Sequence record: OQ626344
Strand: one strand, 5' to 3'
Length of the DNA stretch: 64,000 nucleotides
DNA from: Escherichia phage S127 BCL3
In this document: positions 5,284-5,670 of the stretch, one piece after another
Numbering within the stretch: the stretch's first letter is position 1
Layout of the letters: each line of letters begins with the position of its first letter
Made by a program: the position numbers and the translations under genes
Notes under the pieces: generated by a model
What the model saw: only the letters and a program-made list of their open reading frames with translations
Database searches by the model: none
What the model was told of the DNA's origin: nothing

Positions 5284-5312
5284 TTGACACGACGCTGAAG
5301 ATTTAGTATCAT
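5284..5312 (+). promoter_or_regulatory. sigma70-like promoter (TTGACA-17-TATCAT) upstream of hpf homolog
   Basis: exact -35 hexamer, 17-nt spacer, TATCAT -10; followed by AGAGGG/CCCTCT stem-loop in the leader. Confidence 0.5.
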
Positions 5313-5358
5313 TGTTTTCAAAGAGGGGTTGGTCCCTCTTCTTTAAAAGGAACACATT

Positions 5359-5670
5359 ATGCAAATTGAAATCACTGGCAACGTAGAAATCACTGAAGGT
5401 ATGGTGTCTTTCATTTCCAACAAAATGTCCAAGCTGGAGCGTTTGCACCCCTCTGCCAACTATGCACGTGTGAGTGTAAAAGTTGAAAATGATCACCAGG
5501 AAGTTATGGCTTTCATTTTTGACACTTCTGGAAAAGAAGTTATCGCCAAAGCTAAAGGTAGTGATGCTTACGAGGCAACTGACCGTATGGTAGATGTTGC
5601 AGCACGCCAGTTGGCTAAGTGTGGTGGAAAGAAAGGTAAGGGAAAAGGTAAAGTAAAGATTGACTTTTGA
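5359..5670 (+). CDS. hpf: ribosome hibernation promoting factor / RaiA (YfiA/HPF family) homolog
   Basis: 103 aa; N-terminus MQIEITGNVEITE and ARQL motif near the C-terminus parallel E. coli HPF as recalled; length matches short HPF. Confidence 0.7.
   Translation: MQIEITGNVEITEGMVSFISNKMSKLERLHPSANYARVSVKVENDHQEVMAFIFDTSGKEVIAKAKGSDAYEATDRMVDVAARQLAKCGGKKGKGKGKVKIDF

Follow-up and report, generated by a model that had tools for sequence, protein, structure and literature searches.

The DNA analysed here is a 64,000-nucleotide stretch of Escherichia phage S127 BCL3 (sequence record OQ626344, one strand, 5' to 3'; 'the window' below), and the element in question is a small gene at 5359–5670 that encodes a homolog of the ribosome hibernation factors HPF and YfiA, together with the promoter and leader hairpin that precede it. 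The window is that of a Vequintavirus (an rV5-like E. coli myovirus): in this region its identity is 99.2% to Escherichia phage B9-1 and 93–96% to about 115 other Vequintavirus genomes. We consider it nearly certain that the gene encodes a diverged, single-domain, short-type HPF/YfiA protein (RaiA, pY; Ribosomal_S30AE), that it is a Vequintavirus core gene under strong purifying selection, and that it lies in an array of small early genes with host sigma70 transcription from a near-consensus promoter of its own. Gene and promoter are already known, having been annotated in phage rV5 in 2006, and the protein was tested in 2019. The initial annotation, read from the letters alone, was thus a correct rediscovery, and the interest that is left lies in the function during infection. 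The features of the locus are as follows.

5284–5312, + strand: predicted host sigma70-type early promoter (P144 of rV5); -35 TTGACA at 5284–5289, 17-nt spacer, -10 TATCAT at 5307–5312

5321–5340, + strand: leader hairpin; 7-bp stem (5321–5327 with 5334–5340), 6-nt loop

5347–5351, + strand: Shine-Dalgarno sequence AAGGA, 7 nt 5' of the ATG, read from the sequence

5359–5670, + strand: HPF-family coding sequence; ATG open reading frame (ORF) of 103 amino acids, end coordinate including the stop codon

5359–5622, + strand: folded S30AE core, residues 1–88, from the predicted model

5623–5667, + strand: basic Lys/Gly tail, residues 89–103 (GGKKGKGKGKVKIDF); residues 91–103 predicted to be disordered

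5660–5687, + strand: second promoter-like site, TTGACT-16-TACAAT with TG upstream, overlapping the last HPF codons (I-D-F) and the stop codon

The reading frame, its length of 103 amino acids and the hairpin were all present where the initial annotation had placed them. The product begins MQIEITGNVEITE, carries AARQL at residues 81–85 and has the C-terminus GGKKGKGKGKVKIDF; the full translation of 5359–5670 (+) is MQIEITGNVEITEGMVSFISNKMSKLERLHPSANYARVSVKVENDHQEVMAFIFDTSGKEVIAKAKGSDAYEATDRMVDVAARQLAKCGGKKGKGKGKVKIDF. In the record of phage Murica a ribosome-binding site is annotated at the position equivalent to AAGGA 5347–5351.

Membership of the HPF/YfiA family had been proposed from the N-terminus and the ARQL motif, and both were correctly matched to E. 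coli HPF, which starts MQLNITGNNVEITE and has LARQL at residues 81–85. The homology was borne out by profile cut-offs, PDB sequence matches and the predicted fold. The profile search against the ribosomal subunit interface family, which the initial annotation had put forward as a check, was significant, Pfam PF02482 (Ribosomal_S30AE) matching residues 3–88 with 48.9 bits against a gathering cut-off of 23.7 (model positions 1–83 of 88), and TIGR00741 (HPF/YfiA family) gave 47.1 bits against a cut-off of 40.9. The best PDB sequence matches were structures of E. coli HPF (2rql, 4v8h and 6h4n; E about 1e-11, residues 1–89). Scores stayed below the cut-offs of both equivalog models, at 55.5 bits for E. 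coli HPF (NF007780, cut-off 125) and 19.4 bits for RaiA (NF007654, cut-off 158). The protein also falls outside the long, Gram-positive type of HPF, with PF02482 as the sole domain in its 103 residues and no C-terminal dimerisation domain. By these profile comparisons the phage protein is a member of the HPF/YfiA family that stands nearer to HPF than to RaiA and is the equivalog of neither.

An AlphaFold2 model built on 33 sequences (mean confidence, pLDDT, 83.5) has the topology beta-alpha-beta-beta-beta-alpha, with beta1 at residues 2–7, alpha1 at 13–29, beta2 at 33–43, beta3 at 46–55, beta4 at 60–67 and alpha2 at 70–92, running past the core. Block means of pLDDT were 87–95 up to residue 80, 80 for residues 81–90 and below 50 for residues 91–103. 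Foldseek returned 36 matches in the PDB at E ≤ 1e-3, all of them HPF, RaiA or pY; the top match was V. cholerae HPF (4hei; TM-score 0.84/0.93, root-mean-square deviation 1.0 Å), and 6h4n_x, E. coli HPF in the 100S ribosome, was also among the best. With E. coli HPF (YhbH; 2rql, 4v8h, 6h4n) the phage protein shares a single S30AE domain, the motifs MQ(I/L)xITG(N)NVEITE and ARQL, 40–44% identity over residues 1–87, a predicted fold that superposes at about 1.1 Å, and a short, basic C-terminus. It differs in the replacements K80V, K89G, M70A and I74T, in a beta1-alpha1 loop that is one residue shorter in most alleles, in a Lys/Gly tail that is 8 residues longer, and in the setting of the gene, which stands under a constitutive-type sigma70 promoter and outside the rpoN operon. 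E. coli RaiA (YfiA, protein Y; 1n3g, 4v8i) has the same fold, the same family of binding site and likewise a C-terminal extension past the core, but its identity to the phage protein is only 22%, and its tail of about 25 residues has an acidic end (EEVEEE, D+E = 7), in contrast to the strongly basic 15-residue tail of the phage protein. A parallel with RaiA in occupying 70S ribosomes without dimerisation is possible by analogy.

Searched with tblastn, the protein was found in 118 phage records, in 117 of them at ≥90% identity; as a control for genus membership, a RecD-like helicase was found at ≥90% identity in 115 records. HPF was not detectable in the sister genera, whose helicases are 40–51% identical, and Vequintavirus accounted for 118 of the 129 phage-collection records that matched E. 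coli HPF. In the core domain the ratio of nonsynonymous to synonymous substitution rates (dN/dS) was 0.03–0.12 against nine Vequintavirus alleles, and the variable sites of the gene numbered 8, 2 and 37 at first, second and third codon positions. On this comparative evidence the gene is core to the genus and strongly constrained. The rV5 ortholog (ORF144, ABI79209, the 'viral HPF' of Mizuno et al., 2019) is 98% identical and has the same P144 promoter and the same neighbours; the window allele ends ...KIDF (103 amino acids) and has N21 and T56, the rV5 protein ends ...KIDFGE (105 amino acids) and has H and N at these positions.

Outside the genus, a second, uncultured lineage carries a syntenic copy of 103 amino acids (P0004, 64% identical) on contigs of 125–137 kb. 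Its loci (L002–L005; Logan and ENA contigs of 15.7–126 kb) align with Vequintavirus DNA at about 72% identity over 26% of 3.1 kb around HPF, and were absent from the phage collection searched; an IMG/VR scan gave two loci only. An exhaustive search with phmmer, covering 1.84 billion representatives, gave ordinary bacterial HPFs at 30–44% identity (E ≥ 4e-7) as the next-best matches, and no bacterial HPF was more than 44% identical to the phage protein. One further, seemingly strong match, to P0007 (1160 amino acids, nine matched stretches), was discarded as spurious because P0007 is a repeat protein. S30AE proteins have been captured independently by other large lytic phages (PHROG 8990, Cronobacter phage GAP32 and Xanthomonas jumbo phage XaC1). 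These differ from the Vequintavirus protein, which matches its own family phrog_12469 at E 6e-69 and phrog_8990 at E 1e-6, and there is no detectable DNA relation between them.

The records label the gene variously as 'sigma 54 modulation factor' (so for ORF144 in the rV5 record, DQ832317), 'ribosome hibernation factor', 'hpf' or 'RaiA', and Mathieu et al. (2020) repeated the annotation. A passenger gene, captured recently from a host and without a role in infection, or one that modulates sigma54-dependent transcription, is very improbable. The first of these labels, found in many records, and the relatively recent transfer suggested by Mizuno et al. (2019) would fit it. However, essentially all genomes of the genus have the gene, at the dN/dS of 0.03–0.12 given above, and the second lineage has the 64%-identical syntenic copy; and since the nearest bacterial proteins are only 30–44% identical, the capture is old and not, as suggested in 2019, recent. 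The sigma54 label itself we rejected as a legacy name. It is an older designation of the family, which the Pfam title and molecule names in the PDB still carry, and it goes back to the location of hpf within the rpoN operon, not to a shown activity.

The initial annotation had credited the gene with its own near-consensus promoter, and this was upheld. The sequence TTGACA-17-TATCAT 5' of the reading frame matches the sigma70 consensus at 11 of 12 positions and belongs to an enriched class: the window has 22 sites of at least 11/12, compared with 1.4 ± 1.2 in 100 dinucleotide shuffles. These sites are on the + strand in 1–12 kb and 54–57 kb and on the - strand in 14–49 kb, following gene orientation. 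Its -35 hexamer is unchanged in 18 of 18 aligned loci, the divergent lineage included, and its -10 hexamer has a single exception within the genus, a TATTAT; substitutions fall in 8 of the 17 spacer columns, the length staying fixed at 17. In L002–L005 the identical -35 hexamer is accompanied by an insertion near the -10 hexamer. This pattern of conservation is good comparative evidence for a functional promoter of the host type, with a predicted start site. The rV5 record has a 'Sigma70-type promoter; P144' at exactly the corresponding position, and Kropinski et al. (2013; PMC3606486) described 33 such promoters in rV5.

The hairpin at 5321–5340 (dG -10.4 kcal/mol) lies 1–2 nt from the predicted 5' end of the transcript (~5319/5320). 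Stem-loops at the 5' end stabilise E. coli mRNAs, and the hairpin is possibly a stem-loop of this kind; 5' hairpins also follow several other promoters of the window. The hairpin is statistically unexceptional in stability (z of -0.69 with 56 nt of context and -2.3 with 40 nt), and in the Murica clade an A·C mismatch weakens the stem. Loci L002–L005 of the divergent lineage lack the hairpin, GAGGG of the 5' arm being the Shine-Dalgarno sequence there, and no compensatory pairs were seen among the aligned loci, where the variants are loop changes or stem mismatches. Because such changes are lacking and the structure is missing from the divergent lineage, we claim no regulatory role for it. A terminator was considered and rejected, as only three T stand 3' of the stem and the terminator scan did not flag it. 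An Rfam scan of 4900–6200 (E ≤ 1) gave no match, so no known leader RNA or riboswitch is present there.

Residues of the phage protein were compared in an alignment of 27 sequences, 24 of them bacterial, with the ribosome contacts of Gram-negative HPF and RaiA taken from bioRxiv 10.1101/2025.10.07.680626. T12, K22, G58, D69, Y71 and D75, each conserved in at least 90% of the 27 sequences, are all kept in the phage protein. The contact residues that it retains are K22, K25, R28, E43, E60, R83, K87 and K91; contacts named in the preprint map to K25, E60, R83, K87 and K91, and the E. coli HPF contacts K23, K26, E44, E60, R83, K87 and K91 all have phage equivalents. Among the conserved basic helix-2 contacts with 16S rRNA (E. 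coli numbering), three of five are kept (R83, K87, K91), and K80 and K89 are replaced. The tail (residues 89–103) contains six K/R and one D/E, and the isoelectric point (pI) of the whole protein is 9.0, compared with 6.5 for E. coli HPF and about 6 for RaiA. The initial annotation had called this tail atypical of the family. That holds for its Gly-Lys repeat, found at the tail position in none of the 24 aligned bacterial sequences, and for its extra length, but not for its basic character, bacterial short HPFs likewise ending basic (KHKDKLKQH).

What the protein does with this surface can be proposed tentatively. With a probability of roughly 45%, we favour the view that early in infection the protein occupies the HPF/RaiA site of idle host ribosomes reversibly and in a salt-labile way. 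Soon after infection the phage protein would bind the canonical HPF/RaiA site on ribosomes that carry no mRNA, through the retained K22, K25, R28, E43, E60, R83, K87 and K91. Compared with host RaiA, the protein would rely more on charge and dissociate more easily (salt-labile binding), because contacts would be lost through K80V and K89G and a flexible poly-Lys/Gly tail has been added. YbeY and RNase R are kept from the decoding centre and 3' end of 16S rRNA by host hibernation factors (PMC7913689). Idle ribosomes might be protected against RNases at these two places by the phage protein, which would moreover keep them out of the tighter host RaiA or RMF plus HPF states. The ribosome pool would in this way be preserved and soon available again for phage mRNAs, above all when the host grows slowly or starves. 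The analysis shows the family, the fold, the selection, the distribution of the gene and the conservation of its promoter; that the protein binds ribosomes, does so reversibly and benefits the phage we infer. PhiKZ014 and the virus-encoded bS21 and bL12 offer a parallel as early phage proteins that act directly on host ribosomes, although they have unrelated folds and sites (PhiKZ014 acts as a clamp on 5S rRNA of the 50S subunit), and they have been demonstrated to bind ribosomes, in contrast to phage HPF, whose binding is predicted.

Little is understood of how phages infect bacteria that grow slowly or are in stationary phase, and hibernating ribosomes are one obvious hurdle there. A phage factor that occupied the hibernation site would lend itself to work on the protection and reactivation of such ribosomes. 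Part of the biology of the rV5-like phages, in wide use against E. coli O157, could be explained by it as well.

Several observations weigh against such occupancy, among them the one published ribosome test. Mizuno et al. (2019; PMC6375957), who counted the rV5 protein among virus-encoded ribosomal proteins, expressed rV5 HPF in E. coli NM522 with pBAD24 as the vector; its peptides turned up in the crude extract but not in the 70S or 100S fractions, and 100S ribosomes and the ribosome profiles were unaffected. The cells had been taken at OD600 = 1 and the ribosomes pelleted through a cushion of 500 mM NH4Cl and 1.1 M sucrose. The suggestion in the initial annotation that a phage copy could modulate 100S dimers or 70S ribosomes thus finds no support in that assay, which lost host HPF and RMF as well: in the supplementary lists both are present in the crude extract (scores 210 and 217) and appear in none of the three washed-ribosome lists (PMC6375957). 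Since the protocol did not retain the host's own HPF, the absence of its viral homolog says little about canonical binding, and we regard the negative result of 2019 as weak. Literature searches found no later functional work on the rV5 protein.

The same lists hold a pattern in host RaiA that fits the proposed competition. RaiA was recovered on the washed ribosomes of the bS21 sample (score 22.6) and of the bL12 sample (score 137; two peptides, six spectra), but was missing from the 71-protein ribosome list of the viral-HPF sample, whose crude extract contained it (score 188) and whose ribosome list includes ribosomal proteins of comparable score (RS17, 110; RS14, 101; PMC6375957). The text of Mizuno et al. 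(2019) is silent on this pattern and on the absence of host HPF and RMF (Supplementary Data 2–5). The viral protein, present in the crude extract and not on the salt-washed ribosomes, would fit salt-labile binding as well. Missing RaiA is what salt-labile viral competition for the RaiA site would be expected to leave behind, and we take it as a lead only: the lists are single, unreplicated, low-count mass spectrometry lists, and the two positive samples differ six-fold in score.

The sequence itself supplies further points on the opposing side. K80, which is K in 21 of the 24 bacterial sequences, is V in the phage protein and T in the second lineage; K89, K in 18 of 24, is G and S, respectively; and M70 and I74, positions that are always hydrophobic in the bacterial set, have become A and T. 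Positions 70, 74, 80 and 89 are thus changed in the second lineage too. The four replacements could mean that the binding surface has been lost and not merely weakened. The tail is replaced by frameshift in isolates Murica (99 amino acids) and APCEc02 (101 amino acids), and the APCEc02 form recurs in an independent assembly, P0003; being truncated or frameshifted in at least two natural isolates, the tail cannot be essential. The early timing, too, is deduced from promoter type and gene neighbourhood.

If the surface has indeed been lost, the S30AE fold may have been exapted: it would now act off the ribosome, binding another RNA, a host protein or a small molecule, with the Lys/Gly tail serving the new target. 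The protein was not recovered on purified ribosomes, both phage lineages have substitutions at two of the five basic contacts and at two conserved hydrophobic sites, the pI has shifted from 6.5 to 9.0, no bacterial relative is more than 44% identical, and there is a weak fold likeness to the phage inhibitors T7 Gp1.2 (E 4e-3) and SPO1 Acb4 (E 2e-2). However, most of the ribosome-facing residues and all of the nearly invariant ones are kept under strong purifying selection, fold matches outside HPF are weaker than the HPF ones by four to seven orders of magnitude, and the negative assay missed E. coli's own HPF and RMF too. We therefore think an off-ribosome function unlikely.

A role on the ribosome could also be the canonical one. 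As a pro-hibernation or shut-off tool, the protein would build 100S dimers with host RMF as HPF does, or lock 70S ribosomes as RaiA does, and so silence host ribosomes during takeover or slow the cell. The better score of the E. coli HPF model over the RaiA model (55.5 versus 19.4 bits), the 40–44% identity to E. coli HPF and the retained R83, K87 and K91 agree with such a role, as does, circumstantially only, the unusually slow amplification of Vequintavirus phages. We nevertheless consider it improbable. A phage needs active ribosomes, and HPF-type factors make no distinction between host and phage mRNAs. RMF, moreover, is scarce in growing cells. The loss of K80 and K89 speaks against tight locking, and expression in E. 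coli had no discernible effect on 100S ribosomes or the ribosome profile (Mizuno et al., 2019).

The RaiA lists bear on one more possibility, in which the protein is an anti-hibernation decoy, an HPF mimic that displaces host RaiA, blocks RMF/HPF dimerisation on idle ribosomes and leaves easily when mRNA arrives, by virtue of its weakened helix-2 contacts and its floppy, lysine-rich tail. The sole empirical hint of it is the RaiA pattern described above, absent from the viral-HPF washed-ribosome list and present in the two other samples and in the crude extract, and we hold the decoy to be a doubtful alternative. Were it true, the phage could wake or pre-empt hibernating ribosomes in starving cells, and the protein would be the first viral antagonist of ribosome hibernation.

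The end of the coding sequence coincides with the second promoter-like site at 5660–5687, whose -35 hexamer is embedded in the I-D-F codons and whose spacer takes in the variable last HPF codons. Allele C-termini differ here, ending in F, FGE, FLD, FWD or FE before the stop codon, and one allele lacks VK. As these differences lie in the promoter-like spacer, the end of the protein appears to be shaped partly by a DNA signal. The TTGACT-16-TACAAT site is conserved across the aligned loci (the -10 being TATAAT in two genomes), phage Gotham has a PhagePromoter annotation at its place, and it probably serves the downstream genes. At 5686–5688, bases that overlap the end of its -10 TACAAT, the start codon of the rV5-annotated ORF145 reads ATA in the window and ATG in each of the 13 other Vequintavirus genomes of the alignment, B9-1 (99.2% identical) among them.

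Within ORF145 (33 amino acids, about 5686–5787 of the window), a 65-nt segment at 5726–5790 (+) is far more conserved than the HPF coding sequence. Three of its 65 columns vary among 14 genomes, compared with 36 of 88 third codon positions in HPF, and it is identical in 100 of 117 phage records, compared with 45 of 109 for an HPF control of the same size. Since third positions of ORF145 should vary if the segment were simply coding, the constraint looks to be at the nucleotide level. The segment has an unexceptional fold (z = -0.66) and no Rfam match, and is absent from L002–L005.

No tRNA genes were found in the window, and none of the ten neighbouring proteins tested had a Pfam match. The early region contains paralogous small genes, 4084–4311 and 4301–4558 being 39% identical (E 8e-16) and 4571–4969 and 6776–7171 26% identical (E 4e-9). 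Annotation errors have spread among the GenBank records. The downstream 89-amino-acid gene at 5814–6083, which has no Pfam match, is mislabelled 'sigma 54 modulation factor' in APCEc02, nomo and HMD-6, and the bov and NWU phages have the real HPF gene mislabelled as 'ATP-dependent protease La type I'; many other records call it a 'hypothetical protein'. Eighteen 'UNVERIFIED: Campylobacter phage' records (MG0656xx), with C. jejuni entered as the host, are genomes of Vequintavirus that show about 95% identity to E. coli phages in this region, and their host assignment looks doubtful.

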